DNA of 64,000 bases from Patescibacteria group bacterium. Lineage in GTDB: Bacteria; Patescibacteriota; Saccharimonadia; Saccharimonadales; 2-12-FULL-41-12. The notes below the pieces were generated by a model. The model did no database searches, was not told the DNA's origin, and saw only the letters and a program-made list of their open reading frames with translations. Below are positions 22,726 through 42,593 of this stretch, one piece after another. The position numbers and the translations under genes are program-made. Each line of letters starts with the position of its first letter. Position 1 is the stretch's first letter. The stretch lies in assembly GCA_038064875.1 (NCBI GenBank), contig JBBTSC010000001.1, positions 187,004 to 251,003 on the forward strand, given 5' to 3'.

Positions 22726-22793
22726 AGATTATTTTGCCTTTTTTAGTTATTTTGATTGACTTGATCGACCTGTTCTAGCCAATTAGTTGCTAC

Positions 22794-22820
22794 AAAAAAA
22801 CTCTTCAAAAGTTGAAGAGT
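22794..22820 (-). terminator. intrinsic terminator inside the rplJ leader (attenuator candidate)
   Basis: ACTCTTCA (22800-22807) / TGAAGAGT (22813-22820), followed on the minus strand by T7 (plus-strand A-run 22794-22800). It lies 68 nt upstream of the rplJ ATG. Confidence 0.65.
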
Positions 22821-22902
22821 CTAAAAGTGCTTAAATGATTAACACCTAGGTAGCATTCTTAAATCGTTTCCAATCGCTACTGTCTCTGGCAACTATGACT
22901 GT

Positions 22903-22931
22903 ATTATACCAAAAAGCATGGTTGTTTTCAA
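22903..22931 (-). promoter_or_regulatory. near-consensus promoter of the rplJL leader (TTGAAA-17-TGG-TATAAT)
   Basis: Minus strand: TTGAAA at 22931-22926, a 17-nt spacer containing TGG, TATAAT at 22908-22903. Confidence 0.6.
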
Positions 22932-34576: not shown

Positions 34577-34651
34577 AGGGGCATAGTACAACGGCTAGTA
34601 TGAGGGTCTCCAAAACCCTAGATCGTGGTTCGATTCCACGTGCCCCTGCCA
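34577..34651 (+). tRNA. tRNA-Trp (anticodon CCA)
   Basis: AGGGGCA..AGGGU-CUCCAAA-ACCCU..CGUGGUUCGAUUCCACG-UGCCCCU-G-CCA. Cloverleaf folds and CCA is encoded. Confidence 0.9.
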
Positions 34652-34955: not shown

Positions 34956-35032
34956 TGGAGCCACCTGTCGGATTCGAACCGACGACCCTCTGTTTACAAA
35001 ACAGATGCTCTAACCAACTGAGCTAAGGTGGC
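34956..35032 (-). tRNA. tRNA-Thr (anticodon UGU)
   Basis: Reverse complement is GCCACCU-UA-GCUC..GAGC-A-UCUGU-UUUGUAA-ACAGA..GUCGGUUCGAAUCCGAC-AGGUGGC-U-CCA. Confidence 0.9.
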
Positions 35033-35088: not shown

Positions 35089-35616
35089 CTAGTCTTCTTC
35101 TAAGTCTAAATGTTCGATCGTCTTCTGAACTAGACTAACCGCCAACATCTGCAAACTGTTAAAATCATTTGCTAAACCATCTATTGACTTGTCTAGAAAA
35201 CTAATTAGGGCTTTTTCTTCTTCTGCATCTGTAACATAGGTGTTAACTTGTACTCCGAAATCTGTGCATAATGTTGGCACATGCAATCCACTACTGAGCG
35301 TATCTATTAGAATATACCCCCCGTCTATCTTAACTACTTTACAAAAATCATCATTACTAAGAGTCCCGTATTCATCATCTTCAAAAAAGTCTTCGATGAA
35401 AGTCTTCACAGCCTGGTCATCAAAAGAAGCTTGGAACATCTTCTCATCAACAACCAACGCATCACTCGCTATAAAAATTGAACCTTCAGCACCAACAAAG
35501 TAAGCTGACCTGTCAATCAATCCGTGAGAACCATTTTCCATCGTTCCAACAACCGTCAAAAGGTTTTGGGGTGGAATGGTGTCTGCTTTTGGTATAAGCC
35601 TCTCTCCGTCAAACAT
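35089..35616 (-). CDS. hypothetical acidic protein
   Basis: 175-aa ORF with no motif recognised, downstream of the 538-aa ORF. Confidence 0.5.
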   Translation of the reverse strand: MFDGERLIPKADTIPPQNLLTVVGTMENGSHGLIDRSAYFVGAEGSIFIASDALVVDEKMFQASFDDQAVKTFIEDFFEDDEYGTLSNDDFCKVVKIDGGYILIDTLSSGLHVPTLCTDFGVQVNTYVTDAEEEKALISFLDKSIDGLANDFNSLQMLAVSLVQKTIEHLDLEED

Positions 35617-35625
35617 ACTAATATA

Positions 35626-37242
35626 TTACTTTCTTTTGATTATTTTACAAATTTGTTTTGTTGCACAGTTATAGCTAGAGATAATTTTTGCTTTAGCTCG
35701 CACGACATCATTCCAAAGTTTTTCTTCTGCGTCGCTACCCCAACCACCACCAATTCTTAAACCTGACAGCTTCGCTACTGCCAAACGGCTGTTGTTGTGC
35801 CCGATATGCTTAGTGTAATCTCCATACGTTTTCCACATCTGTTGAGCTACAGCTGTGTAACCGCCTAAAATAGGTATAAGTGAGCACAAAGTTGCTTTGC
35901 TCAGGTCTGTTTTGTTAAAACGATCTGTTAAGGCAGTTACTGCACCTCGCACTGCAGAGGTTGCTATCGCACCTGTAGCAAGGACTCCAACTACTTCCTT
36001 CGGGCTGTTGTAGACTGTGAGCGCTGACGCAGTCAACGCATCAAAAACACGCGAATTTGCCAAATAAAATATTTGCAAGGCTGTATATGTGTTAAGGTCG
36101 TGCGGAGAGACCACGTCTAAAGCTTCTTTGTATTCTTTTTCTGAGACTGTCCCATTCTTTGTTGCCACACTCATTCCTTTCAGTATTGTATTCCTCAGTA
36201 CTACGTGTGTTCGGATATCTGGGTCTTTGAGGCAGAGGTACGTCACGTATGGTAAATCTCTTAGTTTGCTAGCCCTGCTTTGTATTTTTTCACTTGCCAA
36301 GTCAACTATAGCCCCTCCAAAAATTGATAATCGAATAGCGTTGTGACCAAAATCCGAAGAACGAATTATATCGGCTTTTCTTGGAGTTACAGAGTTGAGA
36401 TCCTCAAGGCTATCCGCAACTTTAACTCTTTTTGGCTTTTCATCAGCTGATTCTATGACAGCTTGCTCAATAGCGTATTCTTGAAGAAGTTTGTTTAACT
36501 TTCCTCTGTCTTCATCAGCTAAATCTAGATTTTCAGCAATATCTTTAAGCTTCTCGGTATCAATCTTTCGAAAAGTCTGATCTTTTCCATCTAACCCAAA
36601 TGTGGCTTTGGCGTCTTTAAAAAACTTAAATTTAGACAATAACAGACTCCCAGGAAAAGAAACCAATGGAAGCTCAGTCCTGCCATCTAACCAGACCAAG
36701 CCACCGTCTGACCTGACTCTAAAGTTAGCTTTACCAACAGGGTTCTCTGGGTGTATATGAGCAAGAGTTTGAATCCCCGTACTTTCAGCCTGTGACCAGA
36801 GTAATTCTCTTGCCTCTCTAATCTTGTCGTTTTCAGCACCGTCATCATCAAGTCGTGCACTATGTGTTGTGTCCATACGCTCAATAACTTGAGCAAAACC
36901 ATGTCCAGATATAAAAGTATACCCCAAAGGTTCAGGTGTTGTTACGTTACCACCGGTTAGCTTTGGAACAACGATGCTGAGTATAGAGCTCCTTAGGTAG
37001 TCCGCTCTGGCTACATTTTCGTCTGTTCTCTCTTCAGGTGCTTGAGTGATAGTAACAACCGCTCGCCCAAGTACTGCGAGCTCATCTTCGCTGTAGCCCT
37101 CAATCACATCACTATGAATTGTTTCTATCCAGCCTTCACCGTGGCCAACCTGAGATAAAGGCAGATCAATAGATTGTCCATTGCTTTGAGCTAAAGCGAA
37201 TGAACCACCATCCACGACCATTTCTTGTCTTATGTTTAACAT
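35626..37242 (-). CDS. hypothetical protein (weak resemblance to ABC1/UbiB-type atypical kinases)
   Basis: 538 aa. LAHIHPENPVGKANFRVRSDGGLVWLDG resembles a kinase catalytic-loop/DFG region. Hydrophobic C-terminal segments. The assignment is tentative. Confidence 0.5.
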   Translation of the reverse strand: MLNIRQEMVVDGGSFALAQSNGQSIDLPLSQVGHGEGWIETIHSDVIEGYSEDELAVLGRAVVTITQAPEERTDENVARADYLRSSILSIVVPKLTGGNVTTPEPLGYTFISGHGFAQVIERMDTTHSARLDDDGAENDKIREARELLWSQAESTGIQTLAHIHPENPVGKANFRVRSDGGLVWLDGRTELPLVSFPGSLLLSKFKFFKDAKATFGLDGKDQTFRKIDTEKLKDIAENLDLADEDRGKLNKLLQEYAIEQAVIESADEKPKRVKVADSLEDLNSVTPRKADIIRSSDFGHNAIRLSIFGGAIVDLASEKIQSRASKLRDLPYVTYLCLKDPDIRTHVVLRNTILKGMSVATKNGTVSEKEYKEALDVVSPHDLNTYTALQIFYLANSRVFDALTASALTVYNSPKEVVGVLATGAIATSAVRGAVTALTDRFNKTDLSKATLCSLIPILGGYTAVAQQMWKTYGDYTKHIGHNNSRLAVAKLSGLRIGGGWGSDAEEKLWNDVVRAKAKIISSYNCATKQICKIIKRK

Positions 37243-37349: not shown

Positions 37350-37434
37350 TGGTGCAGGGTGAGGGATTCGAACCCCCGAAGGCTGAGCCAGATGATTTAC
37401 AGTCACCCGTGTTTGACCGCTTCACTAACCCTGC
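37350..37434 (-). tRNA. tRNA-Tyr (anticodon GUA), class II with long variable arm
   Basis: Reverse complement is GCAGGGU..GGUGA-CUGUAAA-UCAUC-UGGCUCAGCCUUC-GGGGGUUCGAAUCCCUC-ACCCUGC-A-CCA. Confidence 0.9.
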
Positions 37435-37456: not shown

Positions 37457-37531
37457 TGGAGCCATCTTCGGGATTTGAACCCGAGACCCCATCCTTACCA
37501 TGGATGTGCTCTACCCCTGAGCTAAGATGGC
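37457..37531 (-). tRNA. tRNA-Thr (anticodon GGU)
   Basis: Reverse complement is GCCAUCU-UA-GCUC..GAGC-A-CAUCC-AUGGUAA-GGAUG..UCGGGUUCAAAUCCCGA-AGAUGGC-U-CCA. Confidence 0.9.
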
Positions 37532-39008: not shown

Positions 39009-39858
39009 TATTAACTACCTCGAACTCTTTTGGTGTTGAAGCAACGAAAGTTTTCTTCTCTTTATCATACAGTGTTATATCTAGCTGAGATGCATGTAGC
39101 ATCAGACGATCATATTTCTCACCACCGTAGAACGTATCACCCAATATTGGGCAATCAAGCTCACTCAGATGAACTCTCAATTGATGCGTTCTACCAGTCG
39201 TTGGAGTCAACTTCAGTAGCGTTACCTTTTTATTCTTAATAGTCGATTCTTTAAGTGTCTCATACTCAGTTACTGACGGTTTACCGTGTGGGCCAACCCT
39301 AAAAAACTGTGGCTTCTTTGGGTTTCTCTCTATTGGTAAGTCTATCACTGCTTTTTGGTGTTTTAATGTTCCTGTCGCTACAGCTAAATATGTCTTTTGG
39401 ACTTTTCTGTCTGCAAATTGAATCTTATACCATTTCTCTGCCTCAGGTGTTTTGGCACAGAGTATCACGCCACTAGTTGCTCTATCGAGCCTGTGGACAA
39501 TACCGTCGCGGTTTGTCCCAACAAATTCTTTTGATAGTTTTGGCTGAATATATGAGGCGATAGTCTGTTCCGGATAGAAAGCCCCTTTAGAATGAGTTAG
39601 CATACCTACTGGCTTGTCTAGCACCAAGGTATCATCATCTTCATAGAGCACCTCTACGTCAAAATTTGCTGACTCCTGAGGTACAACTTGATCTGCGATA
39701 TCAAGGATGTCGTTTTCGCTAACCATATAGCTAGGTTTGAGTACTGCTGTGCCATTGACCTTGACGTTACCAAGCTTGATCAACTTATTAGCATAGCTTC
39801 GTGATTTATCATCAAGTTCTTGTGATACTCTGGTGTCTAGACGGATCGCTTCATTCAA
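38998..39858 (-). CDS. RluA-family pseudouridine synthase (RluD-like, with S4 domain)
   Basis: HRLDRATSGVIL catalytic motif. N-terminal S4-like RLDTRVSQEL. Confidence 0.9.
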   Translation of the reverse strand: MNEAIRLDTRVSQELDDKSRSYANKLIKLGNVKVNGTAVLKPSYMVSENDILDIADQVVPQESANFDVEVLYEDDDTLVLDKPVGMLTHSKGAFYPEQTIASYIQPKLSKEFVGTNRDGIVHRLDRATSGVILCAKTPEAEKWYKIQFADRKVQKTYLAVATGTLKHQKAVIDLPIERNPKKPQFFRVGPHGKPSVTEYETLKESTIKNKKVTLLKLTPTTGRTHQLRVHLSELDCPILGDTFYGGEKYDRLMLHASQLDITLYDKEKKTFVASTPKEFEVVNNAD

Positions 39859-40922
39859 CTTCTTAGTCCTACAGCTTTTTGAACCTTTTCTAGCGTTTTG
39901 TTAGCTACTTTGTTCATCTCGTCTTCAGATTCCTCGAGTTTGGCAAGAAGCTTTTTGTCATCAACCTGCGATAGGCTAGTTTGAAAATCTTTTAGAAAGT
40001 TAGCGACAACATCTGCAACAGCTTTCTTAAACTCCCCATACTGTGTTTGGCCTTTGAACTGCTCAATAGATTTATCAAGTGATTGATTATTCAGAAGCGC
40101 ATGTATCTGCAGTAGGTTTGATACACCTGGCTGATTCTCAGGGTCATAGGCAACCTTTGCCTTACTATCTGTAGTTGCACTCATGATCTTCTTTCGAGCA
40201 TCTTCTGGGCTATCACTCATGAAGATAATGCCTTTGTCTGAATCATCGCTTTTGCTCATTTTTTTGGTTGGGTCTTGTAGATCTTTAATGCGTAGACCTT
40301 GATCTTTGCCAAAGAATTTATGCTGCTCGGCAACCGCTTTTGGGACAGTAAATAATTCACCAAATTTCTTGTTCATTCGCTGTGCGATATCACGCGTAAA
40401 CTCTAGATGTTGTGTTTGATCGTCCCCAACAGGCACATATATAGCGTCGTAAAGCAGAATGTCGGAGGCCATAAGCACTGGATAGTCAAAAAGCCCAATG
40501 CTGACATGATTCTGTTGGAATGCGTCCTTTGGGTCATCAGGAAAAGGTTCTCGTTTTGATTTATCTTTAAACTGAGTCATTCTAGACATTTCACCAAAAC
40601 CAGTAAAGCTGTTTAATATAACCGTGAGCTCACTGTGGGCTGGGATACGACTTTGTCTGTAGAGATAAACATTTGCATTATCTAGAGGCAAACCTGAAGC
40701 TACGAAGACACGAAGGTTTTGTATGATTTGGTTTTGCAGAACGTTGTGGTCAATAGGTGTTGTGAAGCTATGCAAATCCGGTACGAAGAGATTGATTTGA
40801 TAATCATCAGATTTACTTCGCGCCAAATCGACAATAGGGAGCAATGCCCCCAGATAGTTGCCTATATGGAGGTCATTGTTAGCTCGAAGACCAGTTAATA
40901 TGACGGGTTTACTCATTATCAT
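39855..40922 (-). CDS. trpS: tryptophan--tRNA ligase
   Basis: Class I motifs HIGNYLGAL and KMSKS. Confidence 0.95.
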   Translation of the reverse strand: MIMSKPVILTGLRANNDLHIGNYLGALLPIVDLARSKSDDYQINLFVPDLHSFTTPIDHNVLQNQIIQNLRVFVASGLPLDNANVYLYRQSRIPAHSELTVILNSFTGFGEMSRMTQFKDKSKREPFPDDPKDAFQQNHVSIGLFDYPVLMASDILLYDAIYVPVGDDQTQHLEFTRDIAQRMNKKFGELFTVPKAVAEQHKFFGKDQGLRIKDLQDPTKKMSKSDDSDKGIIFMSDSPEDARKKIMSATTDSKAKVAYDPENQPGVSNLLQIHALLNNQSLDKSIEQFKGQTQYGEFKKAVADVVANFLKDFQTSLSQVDDKKLLAKLEESEDEMNKVANKTLEKVQKAVGLRS

Positions 40923-40924
40923 TA

Positions 40925-41140
40925 TTATACCTCATCGTCCTCTATAAGCTGATACAGGTTCTGGCCAAAGGCTACAGACAAGACCAGAAAGCCTCTTTCT
41001 GCCATATTTTCTATCTCTTCTTTGTCGAATGTACCTGTTGTATGTTGTTCAATCAATACGAACCTTCCTAGTTCCGTATGAATATCATAAGGGTTCTCCG
41101 GAACAGAATACTCTATTCCATTTATATTACATTTTTCCAT
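40925..41140 (-). CDS. hypothetical 71-aa protein, first cistron of the trpS operon
   Basis: GGAG RBS 9 nt upstream of the ATG. No motif. Its stop lies 2 nt before the trpS ORF. Confidence 0.5.
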   Translation of the reverse strand: MEKCNINGIEYSVPENPYDIHTELGRFVLIEQHTTGTFDKEEIENMAERGFLVLSVAFGQNLYQLIEDDEV

Positions 41141-41161
41141 TGTTATTCTCCATTTAAAATT

Positions 41162-41186
41162 AAAAAACCGCCTGTATTTGGCGGTT
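41162..41186 (-). terminator. intrinsic terminator in the trpS-operon leader (attenuator)
   Basis: Minus strand: AACCGCC (41186-41180), a 7-nt loop, GGCGGTT (41172-41166), then a T-run. Confidence 0.55.
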
Positions 41187-41212
41187 AGGTTAAGTACTAT
41201 TTGATTTATTTT

Positions 41213-41284
41213 TTAGACATTAAGAGACAACCGCCAAGTGTAGCAGTTTTTCCAGTACAAATTTAATGTAATTTTACTGATCAT
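41213..41284 (-). CDS. candidate leaderless 23-aa leader peptide with two Trp codons
   Basis: Minus-strand ATG 41284 to TAA 41215-41213 translates MISKITLNLYWKNCYTWRLSLNV. The ATG starts 7 nt after the -10 box. UGG codons lie at 41254-41252 and 41236-41234. Confidence 0.4.
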   Translation of the reverse strand: MISKITLNLYWKNCYTWRLSLNV

Positions 41285-41291
41285 AGAACAA

Positions 41292-41320
41292 ATGATATAA
41301 GATAAATAACCTTATGTCAA
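41292..41320 (-). promoter_or_regulatory. promoter of the trpS-operon leader (TTGACA-17-TATCAT)
   Basis: Minus strand: TTGACA at 41320-41315, a 17-nt spacer, TATCAT at 41297-41292. Confidence 0.6.
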
Positions 41321-41411
41321 TATGTGTCAAATTTTGTCGTTTACTTGTGCCTATGTTTACCTATATAATCTCAGCATTAGGACAAAGTCCTATCTAAAAC
41401 AAGGGGAATCT

Positions 41412-41696
41412 ATGGAAATACTAAGAGTCTTAAAAAAGAGCAATATTTATTCTGTAATTGTAGCAATTATCATTGCCACTGCTGTGGGTTCAACGATGAT
41501 GATGACACTACAGGAACCTGCCACTTTATTATCAGGTATAGATAAAAACGAACTATATGGAGGAGCTGGTGGCTACCAGGGCGGACCTGGCTGGCAAACA
41601 ATGTATCTACAGCCAGTTATCCTGTTAGCTCTGCAACTTCTTGTACTTGAAGTTCTATGCCGTATAGCTGTAGCCATCTCCAAAAAATCAAAATAG
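41412..41696 (+). CDS. small two-TM membrane protein
   Basis: ATG 41412 (MEILRVLKK...) is preceded by an AAGGGGA RBS and TATAAT at 41364-41369. The longer ORF-track start is unlikely. Confidence 0.5.
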   Translation: MEILRVLKKSNIYSVIVAIIIATAVGSTMMMTLQEPATLLSGIDKNELYGGAGGYQGGPGWQTMYLQPVILLALQLLVLEVLCRIAVAISKKSK

Positions 41697-41714
41697 CCAA
41701 CAAAAATTATAGTG

Positions 41715-41733
41715 CAACCAGCTCCGCTGGTTG
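41715..41733. terminator. hairpin shared by convergent genes (small membrane ORF and rpsI)
   Basis: CAACCAGC (41715-41722) / GCTGGTTG (41726-41733). The U tracts are weak or offset on both strands. Confidence 0.4.
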
Positions 41734-41748
41734 GCAGGTAATTTGATA

Positions 41749-42147
41749 CTACCTCTTGGTGAATTGTCGTTGTTTACGTGCGCCCTTAAGACCGAATTTC
41801 TTTCGTTCTTTTTCACGGACATCTCGACCGAGCAAATCTGCACGTCGTAGAGAACCTCGCAAGCTCTCATCTTTAACAACAAGTGCTTTTGCAATTCCTA
41901 GACGAATAGCTTGAACTTGACCTGACAGACCACCACCACTGACTTTAACTGTAATATCAAATTTGTTTTCTTCTTGAAGTGCGTTAAATGGCTTTTCTAG
42001 TTCGTTAAGTAGATACTGGCTAGAGCTCAGATACTCTTCTGCAGGCTGATCATTAATAGTAATATTGCCTTTACCCTTATACAGACGTACTCGAGCTGTT
42101 GAGCTTTTTCGTCTTCCTAAACCGTAAAAATATGAACCTGTAGCCAT
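41749..42147 (-). CDS. rpsI: 30S ribosomal protein S9
   Basis: GGGLSGQVQAIRLGIAKAL...KKFGLKGARKQRQFTKR. Confidence 0.95.
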   Translation of the reverse strand: MATGSYFYGLGRRKSSTARVRLYKGKGNITINDQPAEEYLSSSQYLLNELEKPFNALQEENKFDITVKVSGGGLSGQVQAIRLGIAKALVVKDESLRGSLRRADLLGRDVREKERKKFGLKGARKQRQFTKR

Positions 42148-42593
42148 TATTTTGCACCTTTCTTAAGATTAAGCACTATTGGAGACTGAGCTTGGTGCTT
42201 GTGCTCACCATCTTTATATACTTTAAGTCGTTTTAGTCGTTCATCACGAAGCTTGTTGACTGGTAGCATTCCCTTGACAGCTTTTTGGATAGCTTTTGTC
42301 GAATCTTTTGCCATGACTTCCTTCAAACTAGCTTCTTTAAGCGCTCCCGGATAACCACTGTGTCGATAATATTTCTTGTCTTCTAACTTTTGACCTGTAA
42401 CTTTAAGTTGGTCAGCATTAAGAACAATCACAAAGTCACCACAATCGATGTGTTTGGTGAACATTGGCTTGTTTTTACCTGTTAGAATAACTGCGATTTC
42501 TGTGCTTAATCGTCCTAGCGTAGTATCACGAGCATCGATTTCGTACCATTTACGTTCTACTTCTGTTGGTTTTGCCGAATATGTCTTTCTCAT
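42147..42593 (-). CDS. rplM: 50S ribosomal protein L13
   Basis: WYEIDARDTTLGRLSTEIAVILTGKNKP. Confidence 0.95.
   Translation of the reverse strand: MRKTYSAKPTEVERKWYEIDARDTTLGRLSTEIAVILTGKNKPMFTKHIDCGDFVIVLNADQLKVTGQKLEDKKYYRHSGYPGALKEASLKEVMAKDSTKAIQKAVKGMLPVNKLRDERLKRLKVYKDGEHKHQAQSPIVLNLKKGAK

Follow-up and report, generated by a model that had tools for sequence, protein, structure and literature searches.

In the trpL leader of Escherichia coli, which controls biosynthetic genes, a short open reading frame (ORF) begun from a Shine-Dalgarno sequence carries two tandem UGG codons in or next to the first of four RNA regions; these regions form mutually exclusive 1:2, 2:3 and 3:4 helices, of which 3:4 is an intrinsic terminator, and when the ribosome stalls at UGG it covers region 1, leaving the 2:3 antiterminator free to form. 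Classical attenuators of this class usually hold two or more regulatory codons. The same logic, by which low charged tRNA leads to more synthetase, applies to the pheM-pheST operon of E. coli and, as predicted, to trpS and leuS of Streptomyces, where a cognate-codon leader peptide is likewise combined with a terminator and an antiterminator; attenuators were predicted upstream of trpS and leuS in Streptomyces, and a pheST attenuator is reported in gamma-proteobacteria (PMC1262725). Here we analyze a candidate leader of this class located upstream of trpS, the tryptophanyl-tRNA synthetase gene, at positions 41162-41320 (minus strand) of a 64,000-nt stretch of a Saccharibacteria genome (contig JBBTSC010000001.1; hereafter, the window is this whole stretch).

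Compared with trpL, the window leader has the same short Trp-codon ORF with a UGG next to region 1, the same exclusive helices with an intrinsic 3:4 terminator, and the same, predicted, masking of region 1 by a ribosome stalled at UGG, whereas no sequence or covariance-model similarity was found. Further, the Saccharibacteria leader has one conserved UGG instead of two in tandem; its ORF, apparently leaderless with an ATG 7 nt downstream of the -10 box, includes region 2, which in trpL follows the stop codon, and its target is an aminoacyl-tRNA synthetase operon. With respect to the Streptomyces trpS/leuS and pheM-pheST leaders, it differs in phylum, in its unrelated sequence, in its single regulatory codon and in the variable cargo genes that precede trpS.

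Three other described systems are relevant to this comparison. The TnaC leader peptide, about 24 residues long, has a single, functionally central Trp with a Phe after it; it senses free Trp and arrests the ribosome at the stop codon via a conserved C-terminal Pro, blocking Rho; its W...D...P spacing is conserved and termination downstream is Rho-dependent. In contrast, the C-terminus of the Saccharibacteria peptide is not conserved, the RNA has an intrinsic terminator, and its geometry agrees with stalling at the UGG codon. The T-box of Firmicutes trpS shares with our leader the regulated gene, the tRNA-Trp charging signal and the choice between terminator and antiterminator; however, a T-box binds uncharged tRNA directly and without translation, and no T-box features were detected here. 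Lastly, mycobacterial leaderless polycysteine short ORFs, as outlined in a preprint, are attenuators sensing cysteine through runs of Cys codons (bioRxiv 10.1101/834739); on that outline they share with the window leader a leaderless short first cistron that tunes a downstream operon, and differ from its single Trp codon and canonical intrinsic terminator/antiterminator.

With a probability of about 0.8, we consider that the window leader is a classical ribosome-mediated transcription attenuator sensing charged tRNA-Trp and controlling the trpS operon, and that it belongs to a family widespread in Saccharibacteria. A first-pass annotation of the window had proposed a Trp-codon leader peptide with exclusive hairpins controlling this operon, and the comparative analysis of the UGG codon, the reading frame, the helices and the linkage to trpS supports that proposal. 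All support for the attenuator is computational, and we infer the start site, the translation of the ORF, the coupling of transcription and translation, and the response to Trp. Leader-peptide control of trpS had also been thought unusual in such a lineage; it was already predicted in Streptomyces (PMC1262725), and it is apparently undescribed for Saccharibacteria or the Candidate Phyla Radiation.

The leader and its conservation in Saccharibacteria

The region 40900-41600 was read on the minus strand, to which all leader coordinates refer, and the following elements were located, from 5' to 3':

41315..41320, minus: -35 hexamer TTGACA (sequence reading and promoter scan)
41292..41297, minus: -10 hexamer TATCAT, 17 nt from the -35 hexamer and 7 nt upstream of the leader ATG
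41213..41284, minus: leader ORF, 23 codons plus stop, MISKITLNLYWKNCYTWRLSLNV (ATG at 41284, TAA at 41215-41213)
41253..41279, minus: hairpin 0, CAGUAAAAUU / AAUUU-G-UACUG, from minimum free energy (MFE) folds; the Tyr and Trp codons form the end of its 3' arm
41252..41254, minus: UGG no. 1, codon 11, the conserved regulatory Trp codon (in-frame TGG in 33/33 aligned leaders, L052 being read by eye from a GTG start)
41241..41248, minus: region 1, AACUGCUA, the anti-antiterminator strand, pairing with UGGCGGUU at 41236-41229 in folding
41234..41236, minus: UGG no. 2, codon 17, inside region 2; found only in leaders that read GGCGG in the WR frame
41228..41237, minus: region 2, UUGGCGGUUG, 5' strand of the antiterminator (folds and family 2:3 helix)
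41178..41187, minus: region 3, UAACCGCCAA, pairing with region 2 in the antiterminator and with region 4 in the terminator
41162..41172, minus: region 4, GGCGGUU plus U-run, 3' arm and tail of the terminator (terminator scan)
41148..41151, minus: GGAG ribosome-binding site (RBS) of the first structural cistron; an AAGGAGA motif is kept after the terminator in relatives

The promoter, the 23-codon ORF, both UGG codons, the antiterminator and the terminator are each present where the first-pass annotation had placed them; only one distance had to be corrected, since the U-run lies about 10 nt before GGAG (41151-41148) and about 21 nt before the ATG at 41140, and not about 25 nt before the RBS. 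The promoter matches the consensus at 11 of 12 positions and is the top promoter-like site within 40000-42500, and the location of its -10 box implies a presumptive leaderless or near-leaderless transcript. A -35-like hexamer was also seen by eye 16-18 nt 5' of the -10 box in several relatives (e.g., L061, L019 and L011). The initially noted excess of Trp codons in the leader was confirmed, at 2 of 23 codons versus 0.79% in the long ORFs of the window.

Region 1 spans 6-13 nt after the first UGG, counted from its U. The antiterminator joins UUGGCGGUU (41237-41229) to the complementary AACCGCCAA (41186-41178), with 10 bp when the G41228-U41187 pair is counted, and the intrinsic terminator, which lies between the leader ORF and the first structural gene, consists of AACCGCC (41186-41180), the loop AAATACA, GGCGGTT (41172-41166) and a T6 run reaching 41162, giving a 7-bp stem with 5 G-C pairs. 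Thus, the exclusive antiterminator and terminator of the originally described geometry hold, while region 1 had been missed and the regions are four, not three. Hairpin 0 may serve as a pause hairpin; a small hairpin stands at the same place in some relatives when inspected by eye, e.g., AACCA-AUAU-UGGUU in L007.

Among close relatives, loci L081, L083 and L085 (TrpS 99%, 85% and 83% identical, respectively) carry the same leader. The sequence from the -10 box to the ORF stop is nearly invariant in them, with two synonymous changes and one non-synonymous change, the peptide being identical in L081 and L085 and different at one residue in L083; in turn, the promoter spacer, the post-ORF spacer and the ORF of 71 amino acids (aa) that follows the leader have diverged, the latter being 56% identical in L085. 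Neither the leader nor the 71-aa ORF was found in L084 (TrpS 82% identical) or L001 (76%), and L082 (92%) is uninformative for the leader, as its contig ends 50 nt upstream of trpS.

A profile made from the four close leaders also matched upstream of trpS in many other Saccharibacteria loci, and a rebuilt profile gave 34 copies in the window plus 32 of 85 trpS loci, all of them on the trpS strand and upstream of this gene. The locus of an oral Nanosynbacter, L071, was without a hit. At the species level, the leader precedes trpS in 29 of 80 Saccharibacteria genomes. One locus, L019, has two full leaders in tandem (1536-1695 and 1949-2109) before a single trpS with a 71-aa ORF between them; each copy has its own Trp-containing ORF and terminator, in what looks like a tandem attenuator arrangement. 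Furthermore, a scan of metagenome contigs with a leader-only pattern recovered 100 loci (L086-L185, with soil and wastewater among their sources), 83 of them distinct in the leader, with trpS downstream on the same strand in 42 of the 44 loci with at least 2 kb of downstream sequence and in all 30 with at least 3 kb, at a median gap of about 390 nt from the leader.

The family shares a sigma-70-like promoter whose -10 box is followed within a few nt by the ATG of a short ORF; the UGG of this ORF is invariant and usually stands in the context (Y/F)-W-F-T. Its regions, as they appear in the genome-derived leaders, are:

Region 1: ACCGACAC
Region 2: GUGGCGGUUUGUUC, then the stop codon and an A-rich variable spacer
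Region 3: GAAGAGACCGCCAC
Region 4: GGCGGUUUUUU, then AAGGAGA and the first structural ATG

Within the family the window clade is divergent, with YW-KNCYT-WR where others read YW-FTDTS-RGG.

A translation signature was evident in the metagenome set, where the ATG is open to the UGG in frame in 79 of the 83 distinct leaders, as opposed to 8 and 4 in the other two frames, and the distance between both codons is 9-11 codons in 70 of the 79. In 44 of the 83, a TAnnnT -10-like box ends 6-8 nt before the ATG (mode 7 nt, n=36), and this modal spacing fits what would be expected of leaderless mRNAs. The codon preceding the regulatory UGG encodes Tyr or Phe in 82 of the 83; the genome-derived leaders, a set not selected on this motif, mostly have Phe-Thr after it, resulting in three aromatic codons in a row (the (Y/F)-W-F-T site corresponds to about columns 48-60 of the alignment A1 described below). 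Distant genome-derived members keep only the W, as in SWQS, TWHI, SWYI and FWRT. Beyond region 1, three frames are in use for the tail of the ORF (RGGLFRVFA, VAVCSVRS and WRxx) while the nucleotides GGCGGUUUGUUC are conserved; the tail is therefore constrained as RNA and not as peptide. Of the two Trp codons initially noted, the first is conserved family-wide and the second occurs only where GGCGG is read as xUGG-CGx, being clade-specific and probably an incidental by-product of region 2.

Covariation was assessed on A1, an alignment of 33 leaders, against 500 shuffles. Helices 1:2 and 3:4 together were 83% paired, with two-sided changes at 9 pairs and none of the 500 shuffles as high, whereas slid controls reached 33-53%. 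Taken separately, the family 1:2 helix (ACCGACAC / GUGGCGGU) was 73% paired, with both sides changed in 5 of its 8 pairs, and the terminator helices were 90-93% paired with compensatory changes. The 2:3 antiterminator was 83% paired, with 27 cells altered on both sides and again 0/500 shuffles as high, and RNAalifold independently recovered its core. Pair 99-199 of A1 (GC 20, CG 4, UA 4, AU 1) is specific to the antiterminator, because it lies outside the terminator stem. Coordinated changes were also found within single loci: regions 2, 3 and 4 of L051 read GUGACGGUU, AACCGUCAC and GACGGUUUUUU, and L013, L044 and L079 have yet other sequences in these regions, changed in concert. A comparison of orthologous leaders for conserved UGG codons and covarying stems had been suggested with the original proposal; as described, three helices covary, and the UGG is present throughout the 33 leaders.

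The window leader itself is strongly folded, the 132-nt leader having an MFE of -31.4 kcal/mol versus -17.0 +/- 3.0 for 200 dinucleotide shuffles (z = -4.8, none as good). The 1:2 hairpin (AACUGCUA / UGGCGGUU; 8 bp, -7.2 kcal/mol) forms if the transcript ends after region 2, and the energies of the 3:4 terminator and the 2:3 antiterminator are -11.0 and -13.5 kcal/mol, respectively. Computing both conformers, as had been suggested in the first-pass annotation, gave -24.5 kcal/mol for the terminated one (hairpin 0, 1:2 and 3:4) and -17.5 kcal/mol with 2:3 only, which makes termination the default when the decision is taken. Folding was also constrained by a ribosome footprint spanning -15 to +12 relative to the codon in the A site, a size assumed from general knowledge. 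Only the antiterminator is left when that codon is UGG-11, the terminator fold is obtained when it is UGG-17, and about 3 nt of region 2 are masked when it is the stop codon.

Proposed mechanism and points against it

The transcript would begin at the ATG of 41284 or right beside it and so be leaderless, and a ribosome would translate the 23-codon leader while RNA polymerase proceeds. With ample Trp-tRNA, the ribosome would pass UGG-11 and reach the stop codon, region 1 (41248-41241) would pair with region 2 (41236-41229), and region 3 would be free for region 4, so that the 3:4 terminator would keep RNA polymerase from reaching the 71-aa ORF and trpS. If Trp-tRNA is scarce, the ribosome would stall with UGG-11 in its A site and cover region 1, located at +6 to +13; the 2:3 antiterminator would then form, precluding the terminator, and the operon would be transcribed. 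Under this scheme the 1:2 helix would set termination as the default, and the stall at the first UGG would remove it.

Several observations weigh against this mechanism. Regarding the regulatory codon, only one is conserved, which lowers the sensitivity expected from it, and the residues flanking the W (Y/F before, F-T after) are more conserved than the model strictly needs; pairing of region 1 would partly account for this, covering the Thr and later codons and not the residue before the W. To our knowledge, leaderless initiation has had no demonstration in Saccharibacteria so far. Regarding the helices, the triple covariation looked for at the purine/pyrimidine (R/Y) position of the metagenome set gave an association that is imperfectly compensated (5 compensated, 5 A-C mismatches and 1 wobble), with 5 of the 10 leaders having GTGACGG retaining CCGCCAC and thus an A-C mismatch. 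The 1:2 helix of the window clade is a prediction from folding and not from covariation, because A1 misaligns this clade in region 1. As for the energetics, the MFE structure of the full leader at equilibrium is 2:3 nested in a 1:4 helix in which the U-tract pairs with GAAAAAC, rather than the terminator, and termination must therefore be under kinetic control; in the folding model, the 1:4 pairing could only form once the termination decision had been made. Finally, 7 bp of 2:3 persist in the constrained MFE when the ribosome sits at the stop codon. A ribosome reaching the stop, initially expected to cover part of the antiterminator strand, masks only about 3 nt of it, and termination would be better explained by 1:2 re-forming behind the stop-codon ribosome.

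Alternative explanations

The conserved flanks of the W raise the question of whether the leader is more than a codon counter, with the (Y/F)-W-F-T peptide aiding the stall, for instance through detection of free Trp or aromatic amino acids by the exit tunnel, and/or the abundant terminated RNA or its peptide acting in trans. We regard such an addition to the attenuator as doubtful; if true, it would constitute a multi-purpose Trp signal for the genome-reduced, host-dependent Saccharibacteria, one which in some relatives would also govern DAHP synthase and chorismate mutase genes.

An independent small gene merely located beside trpS, encoding a small RNA or a 23-aa micro-protein, or else a terminated leader with an added function in trans, is improbable in our estimation. 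Its own strong promoter and strong terminator would yield a discrete transcript of about 120 nt, and the leader nucleotides in the window clade are more conserved than the neighbouring coding sequence; moreover, attenuator RNAs and peptides acting in trans have precedent, rnTrpL and peTrpL of Sinorhizobium being reported to do so (PMC6614838, PMC7298713). However, a pure stand-alone gene leaves unexplained both the conserved, covarying antiterminator that overlaps the terminator and the 30/30 linkage to trpS in the leader-anchored searches, and no separate promoter is evident for the downstream cistrons, whose RBS lies about 10 nt past the U-run.

A nascent peptide that is itself the sensor, in the manner of TnaC, with free Trp or another ligand arresting the ribosome from its tunnel, appears very unlikely. 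Such a sensor would agree with the single Trp codon, which is typical of TnaC and atypical of classical attenuators, and with the (Y/F)-W-F-T kept in most members, preceded by QNNQ in many and presumably resembling the KWFNID motif of TnaC. Against it, the F-T-D-T codons are the region 1 nucleotides that pair with region 2, so that their conservation is explained at the RNA level, and distant members keep the W only (SWQS, TWHI, FWRT), while the window has YWKN. Past region 1 the peptide varies both in frame, three being used, and in length, with the stop 18-26 nt after the start of region 2, and hence there is neither a conserved arrest-site residue nor a fixed distance from the W to the peptidyl transferase center. 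A ribosome arrested at the stop would moreover leave region 2 unfreed, and the terminator is intrinsic, not Rho-dependent. A conserved terminal Pro is also absent, and a TnaC-type arrest peptide was judged unlikely in view of the three frames of the tail.

Least probable of all is that the ORF is incidental and the RNA switches without translation, as a T-box, by binding a ligand or by binding a TRAP-like protein, since despite alternative terminator/antiterminator folds like those of riboswitch expression platforms and the T-box control of trpS in Firmicutes (PMC1262725), the leader has no T-box or other Rfam match, is too short (about 120 nt) for the T-box RF00230 and has no specifier stem or T-box sequence, contains one UAG and no GAG triplets, with no (G/U)AG repeat array, which rules out TRAP-type regulation, and keeps an in-frame ATG-UGG-stop through indels in 79/83 leaders, needless for an untranslated RNA.

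These database results come from two Rfam scans. For 40800-41700 of the window at E <= 10, only noise was obtained (snoR20a, MIR7504, and IS128 on the terminator stem alone); at gathering scores, the leader was unmatched in the window and in 10 leader-bearing loci, with only tRNAs and one L10 leader found elsewhere. Neither the window nor the 10 other leader loci gave a match to the T-box, the competing explanation named in the first-pass annotation, and the leader matches no curated Rfam family, including Trp_leader RF00513. A literature search for attenuators in Saccharibacteria or for trpRS1 attenuation found nothing relevant. Taken together with its cognate-codon ORF, intrinsic terminator, exclusive 2:3 helix and a 1:2 helix whose region 1 a stalled ribosome would mask, the leader is, by sequence comparison, a putative previously undescribed family within the known attenuator class.

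Gene context and biological meaning

On the minus strand of the window, the order is rpsI (41749-42147), a divergent plus-strand ORF, the leader, the 71-aa ORF, trpS, and genes for RluD-like, HolB-like and TPR proteins. The first two cistrons after the leader are:

40925..41140, minus: 71-aa ORF, first cistron, with a good RBS and no Pfam match
39855..40922, minus: trpS, tryptophanyl-tRNA synthetase (PF00579, E = 4.5e-56)

TrpS homologues, annotated as tryptophan--tRNA ligase in Saccharibacteria (TM7), place the genome in this group. Both TrpS (355 aa) and the 71-aa protein have no Trp residues, against 0.79% W in the long ORFs of the window, which would fit with their being made during Trp shortage. 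In a set of 5.8 billion proteins, the 71-aa ORF had only 2 clusters of homologues, and a jackhmmer search against all ORFs between leader and trpS returned the closest clade only (L081, L083 and L085); the first cistron is therefore clade-specific, and in other lineages the slot between leader and trpS is occupied by unrelated small ORFs.

The genes between leader and trpS vary across the family, including small ORFs of no assigned function, DAHP synthase family I, chorismate mutase II, Asp/Glu racemase, M15 dipeptidase and an AstE/AspA-like protein. No gene intervenes in L067, whose leader directly abuts trpS. As trpS is the only constant gene downstream of the leaders, it is considered the regulated target. 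A DAHP synthase family I or type II chorismate mutase gene was identified by Pfam in this interval at L012:2025-2966, L066:449-1552 and L072:2672-2983, and also occurs in L054 and L003; both genes belong to the aromatic amino acid pathway, and the Saccharibacteria phylum is generally held to be devoid of amino acid biosynthesis.

The divergent plus-strand ORF (41322-41696, hydrophobic-looking, with its start probably at 41411) is present in L081 and L083 and absent in L085 (1283-1498), where the leader promoter comes directly after rpsI. The possibility that the terminator belongs to the upstream rpsI operon was rejected for the window, where this divergent gene intervenes, and the orientation of the divergent gene means that the terminator cannot be its own either, so that it is placed in the 5' leader of the trpS operon; L085, with the leader directly after rpsI, is the exception to that separation.

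Elsewhere in the window, a tRNA-Trp (CCA) gene is located at 34577-34651 (plus strand), about 3 kb past the end of the trpS operon, in the vicinity of tRNA-Thr (34956-35032), tRNA-Tyr (37350-37434) and a second tRNA-Thr (37457-37531). Two ORFs downstream of the operon have no Pfam match, one of 538 aa (35626-37242, minus) and one of 175 aa (35089-35616, minus). The L10 leader match mentioned above (RF00557, ribosomal protein L10 leader) lies at 22786-22907 (minus) and scores 57.3 bits versus a gathering score of 44.

The Candidate Phyla Radiation has few known cis-regulatory RNAs, and within the literature and Rfam releases searched this is apparently the first conserved ribosome-mediated attenuator family for Saccharibacteria. 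More than 130 natural leader variants with three covarying helices are at hand, and the leader can serve as a marker when trpS operons, with their variable cargo genes, are annotated in metagenomes. The existence of the family implies that transcription and translation are coupled, physically or kinetically, in these ultra-small episymbionts, and that leaderless initiation in them is efficient enough for sensing. Saccharibacteria depend on amino acids from their hosts, and through the attenuator they would tune their TrpRS supply to the charging of tRNA-Trp, and hence to host-derived tryptophan.

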